Part shown: positions 3,509-16,909 of the stretch, one piece after another
How positions within the stretch are numbered: position 1 is the stretch's first letter
Layout: every line of letters starts with the position of its first letter
Origin: an uncultured beta proteobacterium
GTDB lineage: Bacteria > Pseudomonadota > Gammaproteobacteria > Burkholderiales > Burkholderiaceae_C
Direction: 5' to 3'
Assembly (NCBI GenBank): GCA_963816315.1
Contig: CAWFJZ010000032.1
Span: 46,030 to 110,029, forward strand
DNA: 64,000 nucleotides
Translations under genes and position numbers: made by a program
The notes under the pieces: model-generated
The model's database searches: none
What the model was told of the DNA's origin: nothing
What the model saw: only the letters and a program-made list of their open reading frames with translations

Positions 3509-4426
3509 TCATTCACTCGACTTCATCGGCATCGTGGTTCTGCAGCGCGGATAGTTCTTGCATCCCCAGAAGGCCTTGCCGGCACGCCTGGACTCGCGCT
3601 CCATCAACTTGATTCCGCAGTTCACGCAGGTGGGTCGCCAGTAGTCCCCTTCAAGCGCCACGCTCAACAGCTCCGCCTGTTGCTGCGGACTGCGCTGCGC
3701 AATCAGGTCCAGCAAGCGATCAATGTCGAGCACGTTGATGTTGTTAGCTCGGGCAAACTCAACGGCGTCACTGCTGAAGGTCGATGTCGTGGCGAACTGC
3801 CCGCGCGCTACCGAGTGCGCCGCCATCACGCCGCGCAGCTCGCGAATCTTGTCGACGCCAACTCGTTTGCCGGTCCAGTGCTTGCACTGCACCAAGCTGA
3901 CTGGCTGGCCGGGCTGGTTGCGCGAGTACAACCACACATCGACCCCCATATCGGCGCCATGCGATTGCGCCCTGGTTTCGAAACCCGCCTGCTGGAAGAG
4001 CCGCTCGACGACGGCCTCGAAACGCCGCCGCTCGATAGCGTCGAAAACCTCGGCGCCCCAATGCACCGGCGCTTCGAGGCGTGCGTTGGCAGATACCCGC
4101 TCGGCAACGTTGCGCAGCAACTCTGTGACGGTGCGATCCACAACATCGTCTCTGGTCGCGAACGGCGTCCGTGGCGGGCGAACAGGCGAAGCGGTGACAC
4201 CGGTCCCGCGTACAACACTGCGGCGACGCCCGAGCCAGACCAAGCCGCCGCCCAGCACAAGCAACAACAGTCCCAACGGCAACAGCGCCTTGACGACGCC
4301 ACCCATCATCAGCGTGTCGCCGAAGAACAGGCTGGTCACAGTGATCGCCAAACCAATCAACAGAAGGCGCGCAGCCGCGTCAAACAGTTCCTCTTTGGCG
4401 CTCGCTTTCCTGCTGCGGCGGCTCAT
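3509..4426 (-). CDS. membrane-anchored Mrr-like restriction endonuclease domain protein with C-terminal topoisomerase-type C4 zinc finger
   Basis: N-terminal TM segments (LLLIGLAITVTSLFF, ALLPLGLLLLVLGGGLVWL). Mrr_cat-like core (GVDVWLY...VQCKHW...VGVDKIRELRGV...ATTSTFS). C-terminal CVNCG...FWGCKNYPRC zinc ribbon. Confidence 0.75.
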   Translation of the reverse strand: MSRRSRKASAKEELFDAAARLLLIGLAITVTSLFFGDTLMMGGVVKALLPLGLLLLVLGGGLVWLGRRRSVVRGTGVTASPVRPPRTPFATRDDVVDRTVTELLRNVAERVSANARLEAPVHWGAEVFDAIERRRFEAVVERLFQQAGFETRAQSHGADMGVDVWLYSRNQPGQPVSLVQCKHWTGKRVGVDKIRELRGVMAAHSVARGQFATTSTFSSDAVEFARANNINVLDIDRLLDLIAQRSPQQQAELLSVALEGDYWRPTCVNCGIKLMERESRRAGKAFWGCKNYPRCRTTMPMKSSE

Positions 4427-7551: not shown

Positions 7552-7676
7552 TTTTGTTTGCCGCAGGGCCAATGCGTTGCTGCTCGCAGCGCCGGCCTGG
7601 GATCAGAATCGCCAGGCAGTCCAACGAAAGGGCCTGCCGTGATCCTGCGCCTGCGCTGCAACGCGAGGCCTGCGCC

Positions 7677-10600
7677 ATGAGCGGCGAGGTGGCGCCGACG
7701 CCGCCGGCGCCTGCGGGGCGCCCGGCGCAGCGTCGTCAATACCTGACGATGCTGTTCGCTGACCTGAGCGACTCGACCCGCCTCGGCGCGAGCATGGAAG
7801 CCGAGCTGTATGCAGCCCTGCTGCAAGAGTTGCATCAGCTCTACCACGATGGCGTCGCACGCTACGGCGGCCAAGTGGTGCGCATGCAGGGCGACGGCAT
7901 GTTGGCCGTGTTCGGCCTCGGCGAGCCGAGCGAGGATGACGGCCGGCGCGCCACGGAGGCCGCGCTCGCGCTGCACACCGCCGTCAAGGCGCTGGCGACT
8001 CGCCACCGCGGGGATCTCGCACCGGGTTTGAATCTGCACAGCGGCATTCACGCCGGTTTGGTCTTGGTCAGCGAGGGCGACATGTTGCGCGGCCGTGTCG
8101 ATCTGATGGGTCACGCGCCCAATGTCGCCGCCAAGCTGGCCGACGCCGCCAGGCAGGACGAGATCCTGGTCAGCGAGGGCACGCTGGGGCCGCACGCCCA
8201 CCGTTTCCGCGTCAGCGAGCGCAGCACGCTGAGTCCCGGCGGCGGCGACGCGCGGCTCTCGGTGCTGCGCGTGTCGGGTCTGGCGAGCAACGCCGACCGG
8301 TCGCTGGCAGGCCAGGTCGTGGGTCAACTGATCGGGCGCGAGCGTGAACTTGCCGACCTGCTGGCTGCGCTCGAGGCCGCGCGCGGCGGCACACCGGGCC
8401 GCATCGCGTTGCAAGGGCCGGCCGGCGTCGGCAAGTCGCGCTTGGCGCAGGCTTTTCTCGAGCAGTGCGCCGCGGCCGGCTGCACAGTGTTGCAAGGGGC
8501 CTGTGACGGCGTCGCATCGGGCAGCCCGCTGGGGCCCTTCGTGCAAATGCTGCGCACCTGCCTTGCGATGCCACAACAACAGCCGGCCAGCGAGGGCTTT
8601 GATGCGGCGGCCGGCGCGCTGGCCCGCCTGGGCATCGACGCGGCCAGCGAGCGCGCGGCGTGGGTTCAGTTGCTCGGCGCCGGCGATGGCCGCAGCGATG
8701 CCACGGTGCCGCCCAGCGCCCTGGTGGCCGCGCTGCTGCGGCTGACGCAGGCCCTTGCGGCCAGCGCACCGGTGGTGATGTTCATCGACGATTGGCACTG
8801 GGCCGACGATGCGAGCCACCACCTGCTGAGCCTGTTGTGCTCGGCGCCGAAGGCGTCGCGCCCCAGGCTGCTGCTGGTGCTCGCCGCCCGGGGCTTCAGC
8901 ACGCAAGACATCGGCCTGCTCGAAGCCTTCGAGCCGATCGAGTTGCAGCCGCTCGATGACGAAGCGACGGCGCGCTGCGTCGGCCAGTTGATGCCCCAGG
9001 CCAACCCGCTGCAGGCCGCCGAGGTTTGCCGCTACGCCGGCGGCAACCCGCTGTTCATCGAGGAGCTGTGTCACCGGCTGTCCCGCGGCGGCGCCATCGT
9101 CGCGTCGCGCGGCAACTCCGAAGACGCTGCCTGGCTCGATCTGCTGATCGAGTCGCGCGTGGCCCGGCTGCCCGACAGGCTGGCGGTGCTGGTGCGCAGC
9201 GCGGCGGTGCTCGGCTTCACCATGCCGGTGTGGCTGTTCGAACAGATCACTCAGTGCCGCGCCGACAGCGATGCGGTGCGCGCGCTGGCGCAGCAGGACC
9301 TGTTGTTCCCCGGCGAGCAACCCGAGACGCTTCGCTTCAAGCACGCCATCGCGCGCGACGCGATCTACCGCTCGGTGGGGCTGCACCAGCGCCGGGCGCT
9401 GCATCTGGCGGCAGCCACGGCGCTGCTGCAACGCAGCAGCACGTCGGCCGAACGCGAAGACGCCAGCGAGGCTCTGGCGTACCACTATGCCGCTGCCGGC
9501 GATGCGCAGCGTGCGGCTGACTTCGCCGTGCTGGCCGCGCAGCGGGCGATGCGTGCGTCGGCATTGGACCGCGCGCAAGCGCAGTTCCGCGCCGCGCTCG
9601 GTGCCCTCGACGGCCTCGACGTCAACCCCGACATGGCGCGGCAATGGGACCTCGCTGCGCAAGGCCTGGGCCTGGCTTGCGTCTTCGACCCTTCGAGCAC
9701 CGACCTGCCTTGGTTCGACCGCGCCATCGAGCTGGCGCGCGGAGCCGCCGACCCGCCACGGCTGGCGCGTGCGCTCTATTGGCGCGCCTACATCGACTAC
9801 GCCTTGGGCAACCAACGTCAGGCCGTGCAGGGTGCGCGCACCGCCTTGCAGGCCGCCGCCGATTGCGGCGATGCGAGGTTGCATGTGCAGCTTCAGGCCA
9901 CGCTCGGCCAGGCCCTGGTGGCCGCAGGCCGCAACGACGAAGCGCTGCCCTGGCTCGAGCGCGCCGTGGCCGTCAAGCGCGAACACCGCAGCGGCAAGGG
10001 CGCTGCGGTCGGGCTGGTCTATTCGCTGATCACCCTCGGCCACGCGCAAGCCGACCTGGGCCGTTTCGCCGAGGCCCAGACCGGCTTCGACGAAGCTTTT
10101 GCCCTGGTCGGCGGCGTGCCGCACGAGGTCATGGCCTCGGCCAAGGGCCTCTATGCCGCGGTCCTGCTCTGGCAGGGCCGTTGGGCCGAAGCGCAGGAGG
10201 CTGCGACGCAGGCCTATCGGATCGGCCAGCAGGTGCGCAGCCTGTTCACCTTGAGCATGGGCCGCGCGGCGGCAGCCTATGCGCGCTGGAAAGCGCAGGG
10301 CGAGGCCGCGGCGATCACGGAGTTGCAGGAGGCCACGGCGTGGCTGGTGCCGCGCGGCAACCGACTCTTCAGCTCACTCAACCACGGCTGGCTGGCCGAC
10401 GCGCTGGCGCATGCCGGCCAGCGGCAGGCGGCGCGCCACCATGCCGCGCAGGCCTTGCAGCGCGCACGTCAGCTCGACCCGCTGGGCGCGCCGCTGGCCT
10501 GCCGCGCCATGGCCGCACTCGCCGCGCGCGAAGGCGATGCCGCTGCCGTGCAGCGCTGGCTGCGCCGCGCCGGGCGTTGCGCGCAGGCGCGCGGCTCGCT

Positions 10601-10748
10601 GCATGAGCTGGCGAGCAACCGCTGGTGCGAGGCCCAGGCGCTGGCGCAGTTGGGCCAGCCGGCGGCCGCGCGGGCCGCGCGCGACGACGCCCGGGCGCAG
10701 TTCGAGCGCCTGGGCATGGTGTGGCACGGCGAGCCGGTGGCGCGCTGA
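7677..10748 (+). CDS. class III adenylate/guanylate cyclase domain fused to AAA/STAND ATPase and TPR-like C-terminus
   Basis: Start at the internal ATG 7677. Cyclase core (LTMLFADLSDSTRL...GGQVVRMQGDGMLAVFG...HSGIHAGLV), Walker A (LQGPAGVGKSRLA), Walker B-like (VVMFIDDWHWAD) and a long helical repeat tail. Confidence 0.8.
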   Translation: MSGEVAPTPPAPAGRPAQRRQYLTMLFADLSDSTRLGASMEAELYAALLQELHQLYHDGVARYGGQVVRMQGDGMLAVFGLGEPSEDDGRRATEAALALHTAVKALATRHRGDLAPGLNLHSGIHAGLVLVSEGDMLRGRVDLMGHAPNVAAKLADAARQDEILVSEGTLGPHAHRFRVSERSTLSPGGGDARLSVLRVSGLASNADRSLAGQVVGQLIGRERELADLLAALEAARGGTPGRIALQGPAGVGKSRLAQAFLEQCAAAGCTVLQGACDGVASGSPLGPFVQMLRTCLAMPQQQPASEGFDAAAGALARLGIDAASERAAWVQLLGAGDGRSDATVPPSALVAALLRLTQALAASAPVVMFIDDWHWADDASHHLLSLLCSAPKASRPRLLLVLAARGFSTQDIGLLEAFEPIELQPLDDEATARCVGQLMPQANPLQAAEVCRYAGGNPLFIEELCHRLSRGGAIVASRGNSEDAAWLDLLIESRVARLPDRLAVLVRSAAVLGFTMPVWLFEQITQCRADSDAVRALAQQDLLFPGEQPETLRFKHAIARDAIYRSVGLHQRRALHLAAATALLQRSSTSAEREDASEALAYHYAAAGDAQRAADFAVLAAQRAMRASALDRAQAQFRAALGALDGLDVNPDMARQWDLAAQGLGLACVFDPSSTDLPWFDRAIELARGAADPPRLARALYWRAYIDYALGNQRQAVQGARTALQAAADCGDARLHVQLQATLGQALVAAGRNDEALPWLERAVAVKREHRSGKGAAVGLVYSLITLGHAQADLGRFAEAQTGFDEAFALVGGVPHEVMASAKGLYAAVLLWQGRWAEAQEAATQAYRIGQQVRSLFTLSMGRAAAAYARWKAQGEAAAITELQEATAWLVPRGNRLFSSLNHGWLADALAHAGQRQAARHHAAQALQRARQLDPLGAPLACRAMAALAAREGDAAAVQRWLRRAGRCAQARGSLHELASNRWCEAQALAQLGQPAAARAARDDARAQFERLGMVWHGEPVAR

Positions 10749-10749
10749 A

Positions 10750-13700
10750 CTACGGGCGTCGCGGCTCCTCCTCGGGGGCTTCCGGTGTGATCAGCGTCAA
10801 TGGCACGGGGCTGGGACGCAGCGATCCGAACTCGAACAGCGCCGCCACCACGCCTTGCATGACCTGCAACGCCAACTCATAGCCGGGACAGGCGTGGGCG
10901 TAGGTGCCCTTCGCATCGCGCGCGCCGCCGAACATCAGCATGCGGTCGGCGCCATCAGACGCAGCCTCGGCAACGGCGCCGAGAGCGATGATGACCCTCT
11001 CGCCCTCCTTCAGCGCCAGGCCGTGCCACTCGTGGTCACGCGCCACGGTGCGAGGCAGCGCATAAGGCACGCTGTCTTGCGTCATCGCCCGCAGCACCTC
11101 CTCTCGCAGCCACGCCCATCGCGCCGGTCCGTCCTCCAGGTGCAGCCACTGACGCTGCAACTCCCACAACTGGCCGCTGGCGATCCAGCGTCTGAGCACG
11201 CCGATCAGGTTGCCCATCGTCGTCGGCGGAAAGCCCAAGATGATGCCGGCCAAGGTGGTCGGCTGGTGCTCCTTGTCAACAACATCGAGGATCGCTTTGG
11301 CCAGCGCTCCTCGCTCCGCATTGTCGGCTTGCAGCCACTGCTCGACGGCGAGCCGGACTCTCTGGCCCTGCGCCCGCCCGAGCTCGCTCACCATGTCGGA
11401 AGGCTGCGAAGCCGAGAACACGAAGCGCGAAATGCGCAGGAAGTGGCCCGGGCATTGCGGCATCTCGTTCGGGTCTTCGCTGCCTCGGCCCAATGCCATG
11501 TAGGTGGCCGCCTTGTCGGGCAGGCCGAACCACGCTTGGCACAGGCGGCCAAGCACGCCACCGCCGAGCTCGAGCAGATCGATCGACGGATCCTGGTCGG
11601 GGTACGACCTCTTGGCGCGCTGCCGCAGCCCGCCGAGCACAGCCGTGGCGACAGCCTGAGCTTCCGCCAACGCGCGCTGCTCGTTCGCGGGCGAGAAGTC
11701 CTCGATCGCCTGGTTCACCGCCTCCGCGAACTTCGCGCGGTTGGCACGCCCTTGCTCGTCTTGCCCCAGGTAGCCTTCGCCGATCGAATCGCGCATGCGC
11801 TGGCCGTACTCGCTGACGCTGAACAACACGCCTTTGTCGGCGAGCACCTCTTTGACGAGCGCAGGGTCGGCCACCAACACGGCATACGGCCGCGCGTCGC
11901 AAAGGCCACGGTGATCCTCGAGCACGCGCTTCCAGGCTGGTTCGCGGGTTTTGACGTCGTCGAGCAGCAGCGGCCACAGCAATTCATCAGCCGGTTGGGC
12001 TTGCTCGTGCGCGGCGGCCTGCGCCGGTGGCGCCTTGATGATGCGACTCCACTGCGCGAGCGCGGCCGGCGCCGGGGCCAACGCATACAGGCCCCACTTC
12101 AAAGTCACCAGCGCCTGATCGCCAAGGTCGACGCGCACCAGCCTGCCATCGACCTCGCAGGCGAAGACGCGAGAGCGGCCGGGCACCGGCACGCCGAGAA
12201 ACGGATCGCTCTGTTCAGACGACACGCCGCTGGAATTGCCGCCGGCCAGCCAACGCTGGATGACCTCGAACTGCTCGGCAATGCGCGAGGCATAGCACAT
12301 GAAGACCAGGCCGCGGTCCTTGTGGTCGTCGGGCTGGCCCGGCGGGTTGGACGGCCCGTACGACATGCCGCGACGTACGATGCGCGGCAGCGGCATGCCG
12401 CGCTGCGCCTCGCGCGGGTTGGCGCGGCGCACGTGCGAGGCGTGCGGGCATTGCAGGCCGGCCGCGTCGTGGCGGTAGCTGAAGTCGTTGGCGCCGCCGC
12501 TGCCCATGCCCGGCACCAGCGGCTGTCCGTCCTGGCGGCGGCCCATCATGCGCGCCTTGATCTCGTCCTTGAGGCGCGTGGCCTGATCGGACGGCGCCTG
12601 GTCGGCCGCGGCGTTGAGCACGGCTTCGAGCCGGTCGCCATGCTGCTGCAACTTGCGCACGACGAGAAAGCTGGCGTTGTTGAGCAGCAGGTCGTCGGCC
12701 GCGGCCGGCGGCCGCGCGACCGCGCCGTGCGAGGGCTGCAGATCGGCCGCCACCGGGTAGCCGAGGAACAACTCGCCCGGCGCCACCTGATCGCTCCAAT
12801 TCACGGCCGCGCTCGCAGCGCCGTTTACACGAGGCTGGCTCACGCCATCGACGAAGCCGAAATGGCCTCGCCGCTGGGCATCGCCCGGCAGGGTCGGGTT
12901 GTGGCTGCGCATCGGCTCGACGTGCAGCACTTCCAACCCGCTGTTGTCCAAGAGGGCATTGGCTTGCTGTTGAAGTCGCCGCAGCAGCGACCCGTCGGCC
13001 GGATCCTCTTCCCCGTCAGCCAGCACGCTGCGCAACTGAAGCAGCACATGGACTGCGCGCAGATCGACGGTGCGACGGTCTTGCGTCAACGGCCGATCCC
13101 AGTGGTGCGGATGGTTGCTGCGCGCATCGCCCAGCACGCCGGCGCGCGCTTCCATGCCGTCCTGAAACTCCTGCGGCAGCAGCGCCAGACGCTGTTCGGG
13201 CACGTCGAGCGCGCGCAGGCCGGTGAAGGTGATGGCCAGGTTGCGGCAGACATCGCTTTTAGGTGCGAACTGAAACTTCTCGAGCCAGCCGATGGCGGCC
13301 TCGCGATCGGCCACGCGCAGCAGCCACAAGCCGCCGTGCGTGACCGGCTGGCCGCTGACCTGGTGCTGCGTGGCGATGCCGGGTTGCACCTCGGCGGCGT
13401 CGAAGGCGGGTGTCTGCAGGTCATGTTCGTTCAACGGCAGCCGCTGCATCAACCACTTGATGGCGTCTTGGTCGCCGTTGCGGCGCACGTCCGCGAACTC
13501 GGCGCCGGGGTCGAACAAGCCTTCGCGCACCCAGCCGCGCAGATCGCGCAACAGCTCTTGCGCGAAGCGCAGCAGGATCGCGCCCTGCGAATCGACGCCG
13601 TCGCCGGGAAACAGCGGGCGCATGCGATGCAGCGAGCGCAGCACGCGCATCGCCAGGGCCACGGCGTGCGGCGTGGCCATCGGCGGCTCGGGCGTCAGCG

Positions 13701-14289
13701 GCATTGCCAGCTCGGCCAGCTCACGCTCAATGTCAGAACTCGAGCCTTGCGCGCGTTGGCGCTGCGCCAACGCGTTCAGGTAGTGGTTGTCAGCCACGGT
13801 GGCCGCCGAGTCGGCATAGAAGAACTGCGCCGGCACTTCGTGCTGGCGTACCCAGCGCATGTACTCCTCGAAGGTGCTCTTGCAGGCCAGCTCGTAGCCC
13901 TCGCAGTGGCAGAAAATCAGATCGAGCAAAGTGCCCAGCGGGCCCCATATCAGGCGCATGTACGGCTCCCAGCCGCCATCGAAGGTGACGTTGAGCAGCA
14001 GCTGGTCGCGCGAAGACACCGTCGGCGGCAGGGCCACCTCGGCCACCGTTGGCACAACCGCGAAGCGGAAGAAGTGGATCGCGCGAAAGCGCCCGATCGA
14101 GTCGGCGAACGGGCTCGGCTGGATCTCCGATTCGCGCGCCTGGCGCACGAGGTTGAGCACCGCGAGCACTTTCTCCAGGCGCGTGCGGTGCGACTCGCTG
14201 TCGAACGTGCCGCCGATGAAGCGCTGTTTGAGCGGCGCCAGCAAAGTCAGGTCGGTGACACCTTGCAGTTGGGTCGAACGGTAGGTCAT
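10750..14289 (-). CDS. three-part fusion: unknown N-domain + DyP-type peroxidase + cytochrome P450-like domain
   Basis: DyP motifs (GHFGFVDGVSQPRV, FLVVRKLQQ, CPHASHVRRANPR, RRGMSYG, GLVFMCYASRIAEQFEVIQ). C-terminal P450-like ExxR (REEVLR) and Cys-ligand loop (FGGARDAKGTYAHACPGYELA). AGGAG RBS 6 nt upstream of the ATG. Confidence 0.75.
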   Translation of the reverse strand: MTYRSTQLQGVTDLTLLAPLKQRFIGGTFDSESHRTRLEKVLAVLNLVRQARESEIQPSPFADSIGRFRAIHFFRFAVVPTVAEVALPPTVSSRDQLLLNVTFDGGWEPYMRLIWGPLGTLLDLIFCHCEGYELACKSTFEEYMRWVRQHEVPAQFFYADSAATVADNHYLNALAQRQRAQGSSSDIERELAELAMPLTPEPPMATPHAVALAMRVLRSLHRMRPLFPGDGVDSQGAILLRFAQELLRDLRGWVREGLFDPGAEFADVRRNGDQDAIKWLMQRLPLNEHDLQTPAFDAAEVQPGIATQHQVSGQPVTHGGLWLLRVADREAAIGWLEKFQFAPKSDVCRNLAITFTGLRALDVPEQRLALLPQEFQDGMEARAGVLGDARSNHPHHWDRPLTQDRRTVDLRAVHVLLQLRSVLADGEEDPADGSLLRRLQQQANALLDNSGLEVLHVEPMRSHNPTLPGDAQRRGHFGFVDGVSQPRVNGAASAAVNWSDQVAPGELFLGYPVAADLQPSHGAVARPPAAADDLLLNNASFLVVRKLQQHGDRLEAVLNAAADQAPSDQATRLKDEIKARMMGRRQDGQPLVPGMGSGGANDFSYRHDAAGLQCPHASHVRRANPREAQRGMPLPRIVRRGMSYGPSNPPGQPDDHKDRGLVFMCYASRIAEQFEVIQRWLAGGNSSGVSSEQSDPFLGVPVPGRSRVFACEVDGRLVRVDLGDQALVTLKWGLYALAPAPAALAQWSRIIKAPPAQAAAHEQAQPADELLWPLLLDDVKTREPAWKRVLEDHRGLCDARPYAVLVADPALVKEVLADKGVLFSVSEYGQRMRDSIGEGYLGQDEQGRANRAKFAEAVNQAIEDFSPANEQRALAEAQAVATAVLGGLRQRAKRSYPDQDPSIDLLELGGGVLGRLCQAWFGLPDKAATYMALGRGSEDPNEMPQCPGHFLRISRFVFSASQPSDMVSELGRAQGQRVRLAVEQWLQADNAERGALAKAILDVVDKEHQPTTLAGIILGFPPTTMGNLIGVLRRWIASGQLWELQRQWLHLEDGPARWAWLREEVLRAMTQDSVPYALPRTVARDHEWHGLALKEGERVIIALGAVAEAASDGADRMLMFGGARDAKGTYAHACPGYELALQVMQGVVAALFEFGSLRPSPVPLTLITPEAPEEEPRRP

Positions 14290-14319
14290 GGTGGCTCCTG
14301 GACGATGGCGGGAACGAAC

Positions 14320-16167
14320 TCAATACGGCGCGCGGGGCTGCAGCAGCGAGCGCGGCTGCGGCGCGTTTTCTTCGATCGGCGACACGGCCGCACCGTCGCC
14401 CAGCTCGCGCAGGCCTTGAAGCAGGCGACGGCCTTCTTGCACTGCGGCCGGGCCCGACAGCGGCGGCATCGGGCTCGGCCGCGCCGACAGCAACCCCAGG
14501 TAGTCGGGCGTGCCGCTTTCGCTGCCGCTCTTGACGTCGCGCGCAAAGACCTTGAGCGCCGCCAGCGCAATGCGCAGCCGCTGCCAGCGATGGCGTTCCC
14601 AGCGGCTGGGCGCCGGCGGAAGCGCCTGCTCGCCGTGACCGTCGTCACTGCCGTCGAGCACCTGGTAGTTGGCCAGCGCCTTCGCGCCTTGCGCGCCGGC
14701 CCGCGCCAGCGCGTCGATTTGCCGGGGCGCCATATTGAGGTTGAGGCCACCCAGCTCCGGCGGCAGGCCGACATGCAGCACGCGCTCGCGATAACCAGGC
14801 AGCGCGCGTTGCAGGTTGTCGCGCCAATTCAGCGCCGTCATCACCACGGAGATCAGCAGCGCAGGGATGGCTGCCGCCCCGCACCGGGCATTGGCCACCG
14901 GTTGGTCTTCCGGGCCGTCGCCCTTCTCCGGAAAACGCACCTCGGGCGGCTGGCCACGAGGCAGCTCGAACAGGTTGACGGTGAAGGTCGGGCGGCGGGG
15001 CAAGGGCCGGTCGAACATGTCCACCGGGCAATTGCTGGTGATGCCGCCGTCGCTGAAATCCACGGGGTGCGCCTCCTGCTCGTCATCGCCGCCGCTTTGC
15101 GTGCCTGGCCGCCGACGCAATTGGTACATCGGCACCGGCGACAGCAGCAGCGGAAAGCTCAGGCTCAGCCGCGCAGCGACGACGACGGGGCACTGCGCCA
15201 TCGGCGGCATGGGGCGCAGGACGCGGCGTTTGGGCCCTTGCACGACCGCCGCGCCTTCGGCCGCATGGTCGAGCGCCTGCATCACGCGCGCCGGAAACAA
15301 CCGCGCCCAGTCCTTCGGGTCATAGCAGAAACCCGCCAGCGGCTCGGTGCCGGGATCGCCCGGCAGGCGCATCGGCCGGCGCAGTTGCAGCGCCGTGGTC
15401 ACGACCTGCAAGTTGACCGCGCGCGCGCCATCGGGCGGCGGCGCGTCGGGCGTGGCGTACCAGAGGTCGGCAAAACACACCGGCGCGTCTTCCGGCCGAC
15501 GCGCGAACTGGCCGTTGTAGAGCTTGTGCAGGTGATCGCACAGAGCGTTTTCGGCGAGGCTGTGTCCGGTGCACAGGCCCCGCAGGTTGCGCGGCGCGCA
15601 CAGCAGCACGGCCCACGCCAGACCCGCCGCCGCACCAACCAGCGCCAGCACCAGCGAGGCGAGCAGCGTGCACAGCGCCGCCAGCCACCCCGCCGACGAG
15701 CCCGCCAGCGTCGCGCCGAACCACGCCGCCCACGGCAGCAGCGCGGGCACGAGCGCCCACAGCGCAAAGCAGCGCAGCAGCATGAGCGCGGCCCGGGGCA
15801 AGACGCGCGCGACGCCGCGGTGCCACGGCAGCTGCATCACCGCCAGCAGGCCATCGAGCGTGGGTTTGAGACCGGGCCCCGGCTGAAACAGGCGCAAGAG
15901 CTGCGTGCGGCCCCAACGGTCTTGCTGCGCAAGCTGTTCGATAAAAGCACCCAGGGCGACGAAGCCCTGGCCGCTTTTGCTGTGCGTGCGCCGGGCCTCG
16001 GCCACCGCGGCGGCCGTCGCGGCCACGGCGCCTGAGGACGTACCGCCGATGCTGCGCAAACGGTGCGTCTTGGCCAGCTCGACCAACAGCCCAGCGTGAA
16101 TCACCGCGCTGGTGACACCGCCTTCGAGCACGAGATCGCATTCCAGCGTGGCACTGTCGTAGGCCAT
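14320..16167 (-). CDS. patatin-like phospholipase with inserted transmembrane region
   Basis: Oxyanion/GxSxG motifs (LEGGVTSAV...GGTSSGAV) and the catalytic Asp motif (FSDGGITSN). Several hydrophobic helices lie between them. Start set at the ATG preceded by GGAGGA. Confidence 0.8.
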   Translation of the reverse strand: MAYDSATLECDLVLEGGVTSAVIHAGLLVELAKTHRLRSIGGTSSGAVAATAAAVAEARRTHSKSGQGFVALGAFIEQLAQQDRWGRTQLLRLFQPGPGLKPTLDGLLAVMQLPWHRGVARVLPRAALMLLRCFALWALVPALLPWAAWFGATLAGSSAGWLAALCTLLASLVLALVGAAAGLAWAVLLCAPRNLRGLCTGHSLAENALCDHLHKLYNGQFARRPEDAPVCFADLWYATPDAPPPDGARAVNLQVVTTALQLRRPMRLPGDPGTEPLAGFCYDPKDWARLFPARVMQALDHAAEGAAVVQGPKRRVLRPMPPMAQCPVVVAARLSLSFPLLLSPVPMYQLRRRPGTQSGGDDEQEAHPVDFSDGGITSNCPVDMFDRPLPRRPTFTVNLFELPRGQPPEVRFPEKGDGPEDQPVANARCGAAAIPALLISVVMTALNWRDNLQRALPGYRERVLHVGLPPELGGLNLNMAPRQIDALARAGAQGAKALANYQVLDGSDDGHGEQALPPAPSRWERHRWQRLRIALAALKVFARDVKSGSESGTPDYLGLLSARPSPMPPLSGPAAVQEGRRLLQGLRELGDGAAVSPIEENAPQPRSLLQPRAPY

Positions 16168-16255: not shown

Positions 16256-16909
16256 CTACCAGCGCGCCGGCAAATTGCGCAGCAGCCGCAAACCGCCGGT
16301 GACGCTGAGGTAGCCCCCGGCTTCGAGATCCTTCATCAGCCGGCTGACCATCTCGCGCGAACAGCCGACGCGCGATGCGATCTCGGCATGCGTCAGCCGC
16401 TCGGCGATCAAGCGCGTGCCGTCAGGCTGCGTCACCGCCAACGATTCGAACAGTTGCACCACACGCCCGTACACGTCGAGCAAGGCCATGCTGCGTGCGC
16501 TCTGCGTGGCCACGCGCGCGCGGCGCGCCACGCGGGCGATGAGCTCGAAGGCGAACTCGGGTTCGGCCTGGATGTGCTCGCGCAGCGTCTGCCGCGTCAG
16601 TACGGCGCAGGTGCACGCCGCATCGGCGATCACGCTGGCCGAGCGCGGGCCGCCGTCGAGGCTCATCTCGCCGAAGTAGTCGCCGGGGCCATAGACGCCA
16701 TAGACGACCTCGCGCCCGCGCGCGTCGCTGGAGAAGGCTTTGACGCGACCCGTCAGCAGCACGTACAGCGTGTCGCCGTGCGTGCCTTCTTCGATGATCA
16801 ATGTGCCCTTGCGGTAGCTGCGCAGCGTGCCGCGCGCAGCCATGGCGTGGAGCGCCGGCGGCAAGGTTTTGACGAGGTCGTGAAGGTCGGGTTCTTTTTG
16901 CGGCGCCAT
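16256..16909 (-). CDS. Crp/Fnr family transcriptional regulator (cNMP-binding domain + HTH)
   Basis: cNMP-binding beta-roll (GDTLYVLLTGRVKAF...GPGDYFGEMSL) and C-terminal HTH (THAEIASRVGCSREMVSRLMKDL). Start at the internal ATG 16909. Confidence 0.8.
   Translation of the reverse strand: MAPQKEPDLHDLVKTLPPALHAMAARGTLRSYRKGTLIIEEGTHGDTLYVLLTGRVKAFSSDARGREVVYGVYGPGDYFGEMSLDGGPRSASVIADAACTCAVLTRQTLREHIQAEPEFAFELIARVARRARVATQSARSMALLDVYGRVVQLFESLAVTQPDGTRLIAERLTHAEIASRVGCSREMVSRLMKDLEAGGYLSVTGGLRLLRNLPARW

Follow-up and report, generated by a model that had tools for sequence, protein, structure and literature searches.

The DNA analyzed here, referred to as the window, is a stretch of 64,000 nucleotides (nt) from an uncultured beta proteobacterium of the order Burkholderiales (contig CAWFJZ010000032.1 of assembly GCA_963816315.1, positions 46,030 to 110,029 of the forward strand), and its subject is a gene whose product joins an N-terminal domain, a DyP-type haem peroxidase domain and a cytochrome P450-fold domain in a single polypeptide. 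A fusion of 1179 amino acids (aa) had been recognized at this place by a first-pass annotation made from the sequence alone, which left the strand unstated. The list of open reading frames (ORFs) and the translation confirmed the fusion and placed it on the minus strand, where the 1179 codons plus the stop fill the interval 10750-14289 exactly, from an ATG at 14287-14289 to a TAG at 10750-10752, with a GGAG ribosome-binding site at 14295-14298, 5 nt 5' of the ATG. All of the motif strings quoted in that annotation were found in the translation at the places given for them: GHFGFVDGVSQP corresponds to residues 475-486, CPHASHVRRANPR to 614-626, RRGMSYG to 639-645, QFEVIQ to 673-678, EEVLR to 1063-1067 and FGGARDAKGTYAHACPGYELA to 1120-1140. 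The features of the locus, which include a convergent nucleotide cyclase gene and, upstream, a patatin-like phospholipase gene followed by a gene for a Crp-family regulator, are collected in Table 1. Rfam and tRNA scans across the window gave no match, and a promoter and terminator scan of the 10-18 kb region gave no signal above chance.

Table 1. Features of the fusion gene and its neighbours in the window. Conservation is counted over 118 full-length homologues. pLDDT, predicted local distance difference test.
Feature	Position	Strand	Basis
Class III nucleotide cyclase + AAA_16 (STAND ATPase) + TPR gene	7572..10748	+	Guanylate_cyc E 4e-15, AAA_16 E 1e-28, TPR_12
Fusion coding sequence (N-terminal, DyP and P450-fold domains; stop included)	10750..14289	-	ORF list, translation, homologues
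Divergent P450-fold domain, residues 770-1168	10786..11982	-	AlphaFold2 model, Foldseek, family profile
Cys-ligand loop, F1120-G-G...H1132-A-C1134-P-G1136	10882..10932	-	Each position conserved in 112-117 of 118
C1134 codon, predicted thiolate ligand	10888..10890	-	Near-invariant Cys
Predicted I-helix centre, G1019-F-P-P-T1023-T-M-G1026	11212..11235	-	Conservation; middle of a long helix, model residues 255-287
Pro/Ala-rich interdomain linker, residues 749-769	11983..12045	-	Low conservation, family-variable length, pLDDT <60 at start of C-terminal model
DyP-type haem peroxidase domain, class V / C-type-like, residues 298-748	12046..13398	-	Pfam, TIGR01413, PDB 8RE3
R639-R640 codons (RIVRRGMSYG), including the predicted distal catalytic Arg	12370..12375	-	Both R in 118 of 118; aligns with DrDyP RIIRRATAYG
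H619 codon, predicted proximal haem ligand (SHVRRANPR)	12433..12435	-	H in 117 of 118; aligns with DrDyP SHIRRMNPR
D481 codon, distal Asp of GXXDG (G478-F-V-D-G482)	12847..12849	-	D in 117 of 118; aligns with DrDyP distal-Asp motif
N-terminal domain, residues 1-295	13405..14289	-	AlphaFold2 pLDDT 79; conserved LNVTFDGGWEPYMR and C127-H-C129-x-G-Y132
Patatin-like phospholipase gene, upstream of fusion	14320..16167	-	Pfam Patatin E 1.3e-12; GTSSG and DGG motifs
Crp-family cyclic-nucleotide-binding regulator gene, upstream of patatin	16256..16909	-	Pfam cNMP_binding E 1.6e-23 and HTH_Crp_2

A three-domain protein family of the Burkholderiales

A search of 5.8 billion proteins for homologues of the fusion returned 187 matches, and nearly all of the best 120, which were listed, have lengths of 1127-1266 aa, align over 96-100% of the query and share 36-83% identity with it. 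More than 118 full-length homologues come from independent assemblies; the isolate genomes among them belong to Rivibacter subsaxonicus, Rubrivivax sp., Roseateles agri, Variovorax sp. and Pseudorhodoferax sp., and an Ideonella isolate genome also carries an uninterrupted full-length copy. An exhaustive hidden Markov model (HMM) search spanning 1.84 billion representatives matched 694 proteins at E<=1e-3, of which 360 reached E<=1e-30. The family is found mainly in Burkholderiales, and nearly all of the full-length proteins among the top 150 representatives have the N-terminal, DyP and P450 domains in this fixed order. A set of longer representatives (P0202-P0259, 1300-1422 aa) shows an expansion of 80-150 residues between the DyP and P450 domains.

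Because of these many full-length homologues, isolate genomes included, an assembly artefact was ruled out, and the worry voiced at the first pass that the protein might turn out to be two genes is dispelled by a single ORF common to more than 118 of them. The supposition that an error of assembly or a frameshift fused two or three separate genes, or that the ORF arose by chance in G+C-rich DNA, could appeal to the pieces in which the gene is found in some long-read metagenome assemblies and to a 1918-aa antisense ORF that shows how easily long ORFs form in the window DNA, but it has virtually no chance of being right and is refuted by the 118 uninterrupted homologues at the identities given above, which include isolates of six genera, and by the constant domain order, while the broken copies come from assemblies whose neighbouring genes are fragmented as well.

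The antisense ORF (plus strand, 10279-16035) lies opposite both the patatin and the DyP-P450 genes; a Pfam search with it gave zero matches, and it is a shadow ORF of the kind typical of DNA with about 70% G+C. As for the broken copies, the fusion gene was seen broken up, across different frames, into two or three ORFs that overlap in the ERZ250395xx long-read metagenomes (L070, 5151-9830; L005, L006 and L071); frameshift errors are the probable cause, and they give the false look of stand-alone domain proteins. P0130 and P0137, apparent stand-alone N-domain proteins in the range of 270-350 aa encoded on long contigs, were rejected as pieces of frameshifted genes from long-read assemblies, in which the adjacent genes are broken too. 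Two further candidates, P0085 (860 aa) and P0111 (876 aa), considered as variants made of the N-terminal and DyP domains only, were rejected as truncations because their sequences run into the P450 domain and then stop.

The only names carried by the listed homologues are 'Dyp-type peroxidase', 'EfeB' and 'hypothetical protein', and the architecture has therefore been overlooked. The fusion thus represents an uncharacterized family that is mis-annotated or under-annotated in databases, and its P450 domain, invisible to Pfam, is an annotation blind spot. Full-text literature searches for a natural DyP-P450 fusion, for a link between DyPs and oxylipins and for this gene neighbourhood found nothing relevant, which is consistent with the earlier statement that no DyP-P450 fusion has been characterized.

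Two predicted haem sites behind an N-terminal domain

The DyP domain scored above the cutoff of Pfam Dyp_perox_C (PF20628; E 9e-9, 35.7 bits, cutoff 20), just under that of TIGR01413 (E 2e-25, 89.8 bits, cutoff 100.5) and under that of Pfam DyP_N (14.2 bits, cutoff 27.5), and the fusion protein matched no other Pfam family. Its closest structure is the class V DyP of Deinococcus radiodurans, DrDyP (PDB 8RE3/8RE2, E 2e-28), with residues 351-745 of the fusion aligned to residues 66-439 of the 445-aa enzyme in 8RE3. Beyond the residues listed in Table 1, G482 is kept in all 118 homologues and the pocket motif G660-x-x-F663 is invariant. The domain thus resembles class V DrDyP (PDB 8RE2/8RE3; PMC10820274) in its near full-length alignment, the Asp of GXXDG, the proximal His and the distal Arg, and differs from that stand-alone protein in being placed between two other domains. 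Judged by its catalytic residues and this alignment, it is a member of the DyP superfamily, and, because the Asp, His and Arg residues and the pocket are conserved, it looks catalytically competent. The complete DyP signature reported at the first pass is therefore borne out by Pfam, TIGR01413, PDB 8RE3 and the conserved Asp, His and Arg. A near-invariant Cys-Pro pair, C614-P615 (12445-12450), stands just before the proximal His.

The C-terminal domain is far less evident at the sequence level. Pfam PF00067 (p450) gave 10.9-13.4 bits against a cutoff of 22.8, and it matched just 2 of 24 family members (E about 0.03). When a family profile of the domain built from 24 diverse members was compared with PDB, however, 64 sequences were found at E<=10, and all of the 60 listed were P450s (best E 0.0024), their alignments sharing one register through the K-helix, the beta-sheet region and the Cys loop. 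In agreement with this result, the AlphaFold2 model of the domain, built on the alignment behind that profile (pLDDT 88, predicted template modelling score 0.88), had 1637 Foldseek matches in PDB at E<=1e-3, the 50 best-listed of which were all P450s that matched over their full length (375-469 aligned columns, probability 1.00, template modelling scores 0.54-0.65); the top listed ones are ordinary bacterial class I P450s with similar scores. On the basis of the model, the domain is a very divergent P450 fold. The first-pass annotation had called it P450-like and had proposed HMM and structure prediction for each domain; the claim holds at the level of the fold through the family profile, the AlphaFold2 model and Foldseek, with the Pfam score remaining under threshold.

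The best-conserved part of the domain is the Cys-ligand loop, which aligns with P450 Cys loops in the profile search and whose F, G, H, C and P are kept in 115-117 of the 118 homologues. Its H-x-C pattern is the bacterial form of the P450 Cys pocket (PMC13049297). The loop of the window protein carries a 7-residue insertion with respect to FxxGxHxCxG, and across the family the spacing from Phe to Cys is 10-29 (mode 13-15) versus 7 in canonical P450s, which corresponds to insertions of 3-22 residues. The insertion noticed earlier in this loop is thus real, and it is accompanied by a near-invariant H-x-C-P-G. In addition, R1080 (W-R-T) is invariant among the homologues; it aligns with the beta-strand Arg through which P450s hold a haem propionate, and it is predicted to do likewise.

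In contrast, the string EEVLR (1063-1067), proposed at the first pass as the P450-type ExxR, is present but stands at a non-homologous position. The ExxR-equivalent site of the K-helix is 1067/1070, followed by P1073, where 15 of the 118 homologues have E/D...R and the window protein reads R...T. The register of EEVLR (1064/1067) lies one turn before this site and holds in only 4 of 118, so that its likeness to ExxR is coincidental and it was rejected. The I-helix, whose register relative to P450cam was set by eye, retains its Thr (T1023, 110 of 118) next to an invariant G1019 (118 of 118), P1021 (98 of 118) and P1022 (82 of 118), but the position of the acid is Pro in 82 and Ala in 33 homologues, and the acid-alcohol pair is therefore absent.

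Three sequence features of P450s, namely ExxR, the I-helix acid and a Pfam score above threshold, are accordingly lacking, whereas the fold and the Cys ligand are present. Because ExxR is coincidental and the score is below the Pfam threshold, the domain is of P450 fold and thiolate type and not, by sequence, a canonical P450 member. With ExxR, the I-helix acid and the length of the Cys loop all altered, it no longer has the characteristic marks of O2 activation driven by a reductase. P450s that dispense with such activation and act on peroxides typically lack the I-helix acid and have a changed proximal loop. No ferredoxin or reductase gene was present in the gene tables of six loci inspected, and none was fused to a family protein. 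Outside the ligand loop, the P450 domain has further near-invariant Cys sites at C946-P947(-G948) (11446-11454; 116-117 of 118) and C917 (11539-11541).

A P450 fold that works without a redox partner and has an altered I-helix acid-alcohol pair is also what characterizes the CYP74 clan, to which allene oxide synthase and hydroperoxide lyase belong, and other self-sufficient P450s such as PGIS and TXAS. The I-helix GFPPT of the fusion is presumably unlike that of CYP74. The Cys loop of the hydroperoxide-acting CYP74 enzymes contains an insertion of nine residues (PMC6627107), whereas that of the fusion family varies in length. No CYP74 structure was found among the 50 best-listed Foldseek matches of 1637, no specific affinity to CYP74 was seen in sequence or structure, and CYP74 enzymes are not fused to a peroxidase. 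The Cys-loop insertion is therefore a resemblance to CYP74 with no evidence of kinship.

The N-terminal part had been said at the first pass to match nothing recognizable, and this held: no Pfam match was obtained in any of the 24 members, no PDB sequence matched, and Foldseek gave nothing at E<=1e-3. Its AlphaFold2 model combines a ferredoxin-like alpha+beta region at about residues 8-158 with a helical one at about 165-290, and weak Foldseek matches of Dabb type (E 0.08-0.5, probability up to 0.89) included methylmuconolactone isomerase, Passiflora hydroxynitrile lyase and olivetolic acid cyclase. That it might be a third DyP half or a P450 fragment was rejected (hhalign best probability <1%). 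Among full-length proteins, the domain was found only as the N-terminal part of the fusion family, and C127, C129 and Y132 are each conserved in at least 90% of the homologues. The stretch C-H-C-E-G-Y-E-L-A (13885-13911, residues 127-135) resembles H-A-C-P-G-Y-E-L-A of the P450 domain (10870-10896, residues 1132-1140), and the Cys motif may either mark a third site for a metal or haem or be coincidental (hhalign P = 0.22). As a whole, the fusion is probably a cytoplasmic protein with three domains and two haems, the cytoplasmic location being predicted because no signal peptide was evident by eye.

A conserved cyclase neighbour and recurrent lipases

The neighbourhood of the fusion gene was compared by tblastn and ORF clustering in 67 loci, 63 loci having come from species-representative genomes and the others having been found by protein sequence. 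A homologue of the cyclase (42-50% identity) was located downstream of and convergent with the fusion gene in 54 of the 67 loci, mostly directly adjacent, and it was the only broadly conserved neighbour. Pectate lyase, PBP1C, DUF2807 and LytTR regulator genes were rejected as conserved partners, since their association is synteny within one clade and their functions are unrelated. In the window, the stop codons of the two genes, TGA on the plus strand and TAG on the minus strand, are 1 nt apart (10746-10752), which leaves no room for separate terminators; the probable start of the cyclase gene is M199. At homologous loci in which both genes were called, the gap between them was a few to about 100 nt.

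The cyclase-AAA_16-TPR composition of the neighbouring gene is shared with mycobacterial proteins, the Rv0386-type ones having this cyclase-AAA-TPR architecture. We know of no mycobacterial cyclase that is paired with a haem enzyme. A precedent for the fusion of a lipase with a cyclase is LipJ (NCBIfam model), which the neighbouring cyclase matches in the cyclase domain only (32 bits, cutoff 800). The fatty-acid-regulated mycobacterial cyclases Rv2212 and Rv1625c offer a precedent for lipid control of class III cyclases.

Lipases are connected with the fusion in three forms: a patatin gene upstream, a patatin domain attached at the N-terminus and a GDSL domain attached at the C-terminus. In the window, the patatin gene is probably an operon partner of the fusion gene, because its stop lies just 30 nt 5' of the fusion ATG on the same strand. 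Such an upstream gene is confined to the closest subclade of the window (Rivibacter, L001; L008; L009; Methylibium, L052; and L071). Covalently attached patatin was detected among the top 150 representatives, three of which have an N-terminal leader of about 340 residues; in two of them, P0229 and P0267, Pfam identified the leader as patatin (E 2.5e-16 and 3e-19). At the other end of the protein, 12 of the same 150 have a C-terminal tail of about 300 residues of the GDSL/SGNH lipase kind, including the 1567-aa protein WP_341423585.1 of Ideonella lacteola, and a profile search of the C-terminal part revealed a GDSL/SGNH lipase domain beyond the P450-fold domain in P0155, P0154 and P0242. The tail of P0155 matches PF13472 above threshold (E 4e-9), and GDS and GGND motifs can be read in its sequence; a single-sequence PDB search with it gave no match. 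Both the patatin-fused and the GDSL-fused variants lie about 20 nt from a cyclase-AAA_16-TPR gene in convergent orientation. Two unrelated lipase folds are thus attached to the fusion enzyme in three independent ways, and nothing else points as strongly to the substrate, which would be an acyl chain freed from a lipid.

Between its catalytic motifs, the patatin of the window has a hydrophobic insert of about 70 residues (about residues 130-200 of the ORF), which suggests membrane anchoring. The product of the Crp gene, whose start was taken at M96, matched NCBIfam CRP below cutoff (E 1.7e-34), and Crp homologues were also found near the fusion in L001, L014 and L064.

Proposed function and alternatives

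Because lipases recur with the family and a cyclase-sensor gene adjoins about four-fifths of the loci examined, the fusion family may be a bacterial synthase of lipid mediators (oxylipins). Tentatively, and with rather less than even confidence, we propose that the protein is a reductase-independent fatty-acid oxygenase and hydroperoxide isomerase coupled to cyclic-nucleotide signalling. A fatty acid would be freed from membrane lipid by a lipase of patatin or GDSL type. One haem domain, for which the DyP is the likeliest candidate, would be primed by peroxide, forming compound I and a radical on an amino acid, and would then oxygenate the fatty acid in the manner of COX and the fungal dioxygenases. 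DyPs form Tyr and Trp radicals from compound I. The mechanism of COX and DOX leads from compound I to a tyrosyl radical (PMC13049297). The self-sufficient P450 domain would then rearrange the hydroperoxide into a diol, an epoxy alcohol or an allene oxide, and the neighbouring cyclase would read the product or the state of the enzyme; in the window, the resulting cyclic nucleotide would be passed on to the Crp-type regulator encoded alongside. Lipid-regulated bacterial adenylyl and class III cyclases are a precedent for the last steps.

In design, the protein is most like the fungal Ppo/LDS DOX-CYP enzymes, without being one of them, and it would be their bacterial analogue with a different peroxidase fold. 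The fungal Ppo, LDS, DOX-AOS and DOX-EAS proteins are two-haem fusions of a dioxygenase and a P450 in which, as in the fusion described here, a peroxidase-type haem domain precedes a C-terminal P450, and the fungal P450 needs no reductase and likewise keeps the bacterial-type HxC Cys pocket (PMC13049297). The substrate of the fungal enzymes is a free fatty acid, and for the fusion it is the lipase links alone that suggest the same. Unlike the fungal proteins, the fusion has as its first haem domain a DyP, of ferredoxin-like CDE fold, in place of the cyclooxygenase/animal-peroxidase fold, and it also has an extra N-terminal domain of about 295 residues, a bacterial host and a cyclase-STAND-TPR partner. 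The analogy with Ppo drawn in the first-pass annotation has thus gained indirect support from the three lipase associations, but the protein is not a member of that family, its peroxidase domain being a DyP. A comparable combination of an oxygenase with a hydroperoxide-transforming haem enzyme exists in the coral and cyanobacterial fusions of catalase-related AOS/HPL with lipoxygenase, which differ in using a catalase-like haem domain and a non-haem-iron lipoxygenase and share no homology with the fusion (PMC5617202). What stands out here is a putative two-haem fusion oxygenase built on a DyP, together with an unexpected conserved partnership with a cyclase sensor.

Several observations weigh against an oxylipin synthase. 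A lipase link is found in roughly 15-20% of members, and most have no fused or adjacent lipase, the Roseateles/Pelomonas, Pseudorhodoferax and Variovorax loci among them. The cyclase gene, being convergent, is not cotranscribed with the fusion, and 13 of the 67 loci have no cyclase in the available sequence, several of these ending at a contig edge. Haem binding of both domains is predicted from conserved ligand residues, to our knowledge no DyP dioxygenates fatty acids, and Foldseek does not favour P450s acting on fatty acids or hydroperoxides among the 50 best of 1637 matches. Moreover, the membranes of Burkholderiales contain mostly saturated and monounsaturated fatty acids, which are poorer substrates for classical oxylipin chemistry. 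Finally, the proposal gives the N-terminal domain no role and leaves it unexplained.

The same lipase associations would also apply to a system for the repair or detoxification of lipid peroxides, which we consider unlikely. The lipase would excise oxidized acyl chains, the DyP would reduce hydroperoxides to alcohols, the P450 domain would isomerize or cleave hydroperoxides and the cyclase would report oxidative damage to the membrane. Such a role would suit the intact peroxidase site of the DyP and the P450 features compatible with peroxide chemistry, and it would not need a separate dioxygenase activity of the DyP to be assumed. Nevertheless, it leaves unexplained why two different peroxide-consuming haem sites are fused and assigns no role to the N-terminal domain, the lipase is not nearby in most members, and no conserved oxidative-stress genes were seen in the neighbourhoods of the 67 clustered loci.

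It is improbable that the fusion has a classical DyP role, that is, the H2O2-dependent oxidation of aromatic, lignin-derived or secondary-metabolite compounds in which a P450 peroxygenase would hydroxylate or demethylate the substrate before the DyP oxidizes the product. The lipase links would then be incidental, which is hard to accept for three independent associations, two of them covalent. The known oxidation of dyes and lignin models by DyPs would agree with this role, as would the presence of the aromatic-acid P450s CYP199A4 and PbdA among the top Foldseek matches and of LigAB and tannase genes near the Ideonella locus; however, Foldseek scores do not separate P450 classes and the aromatic-catabolism neighbours are not conserved.

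Given that the cyclase pairing is the most widespread association and that ExxR and the I-helix acid were lost while the haem-binding residues were kept, the P450-fold domain, perhaps with the N-terminal one, could be conceived as a noncatalytic haem-thiolate sensor of redox state, gas or H2O2, so that the protein would act either as a DyP under regulation or together with the STAND cyclase in signalling. We judge this to be quite improbable: the full P450 fold, including the region of the substrate channel, is retained with high model confidence, the strong conservation of T1023 and the I-helix motif is what an active site would show, and the lipase fusions favour a metabolic substrate.

Even less credit can be given to an anti-phage or abortive-infection module, in which the STAND-TPR-cyclase would sense infection and make a cyclic nucleotide that switches on a membrane-destroying lipase/peroxidase, possibly through the N-terminal domain. 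STAND ATPases, cyclases and patatins are common parts of defence systems, and the cyclase matches PADLOC PycC models (E 2.8e-16) as the cNMP domain of the Crp regulator matches PycTIR models, but these matches span generic cyclase and cNMP-binding domains only, and no PADLOC model was matched by either the fusion protein or the patatin. The locus stands among housekeeping genes such as gatA and gatB, it is syntenic and not patchy across many Roseateles/Pelomonas species, and the convergent fusion and cyclase genes share no operon, all of which makes a defence role very unlikely.

The oxylipin synthase reading can be extended to the whole two-gene module, in which an N-domain-DyP-P450 protein, with or without a lipase, faces the cyclase-STAND-TPR gene, accompanied in the window by Crp. 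It is doubtful, and we put it forward only as a speculation, that this module is a complete lipid-mediator signalling axis. The lipase would free a fatty acid, the two-haem enzyme would turn it into an oxylipin with no need of a reductase, and the STAND/TPR cyclase would act as the receptor and produce the cyclic nucleotide for the Crp-type regulator. If so, the module would be a prokaryotic counterpart of the eukaryotic pathway formed by phospholipase A2, COX/P450, receptor and cAMP, and it would give DyPs their first defined physiological role, that of a radical-based fatty-acid oxygenase.

DyPs are widespread and their natural substrates are mostly unknown, so a conserved family that joins a DyP to a P450-fold domain, and repeatedly to lipases, offers a concrete and testable clue to their physiology. 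If the fusion does make oxylipins, the fungal DOX-CYP design would have been invented independently on a different peroxidase fold, and a reductase-independent P450 lineage would be added in bacteria, while the cyclase pairing points to a possible lipid-to-cyclic-nucleotide route undescribed in bacteria. A self-contained two-haem oxygenase would also be a potential biocatalyst for the functionalization of fatty acids.

Elsewhere in the window, gatA and gatB lie at 20.1-23.0 kb, and a gene whose product pairs a restriction endonuclease domain of Mrr type with a zinc ribbon of topoisomerase type is found about 6 kb past the cyclase gene (3509-4426, minus strand). The G+C content falls from about 0.68 to about 0.62 over the last third of the window (about 40000-64000), which may mark the boundary of horizontally acquired DNA.

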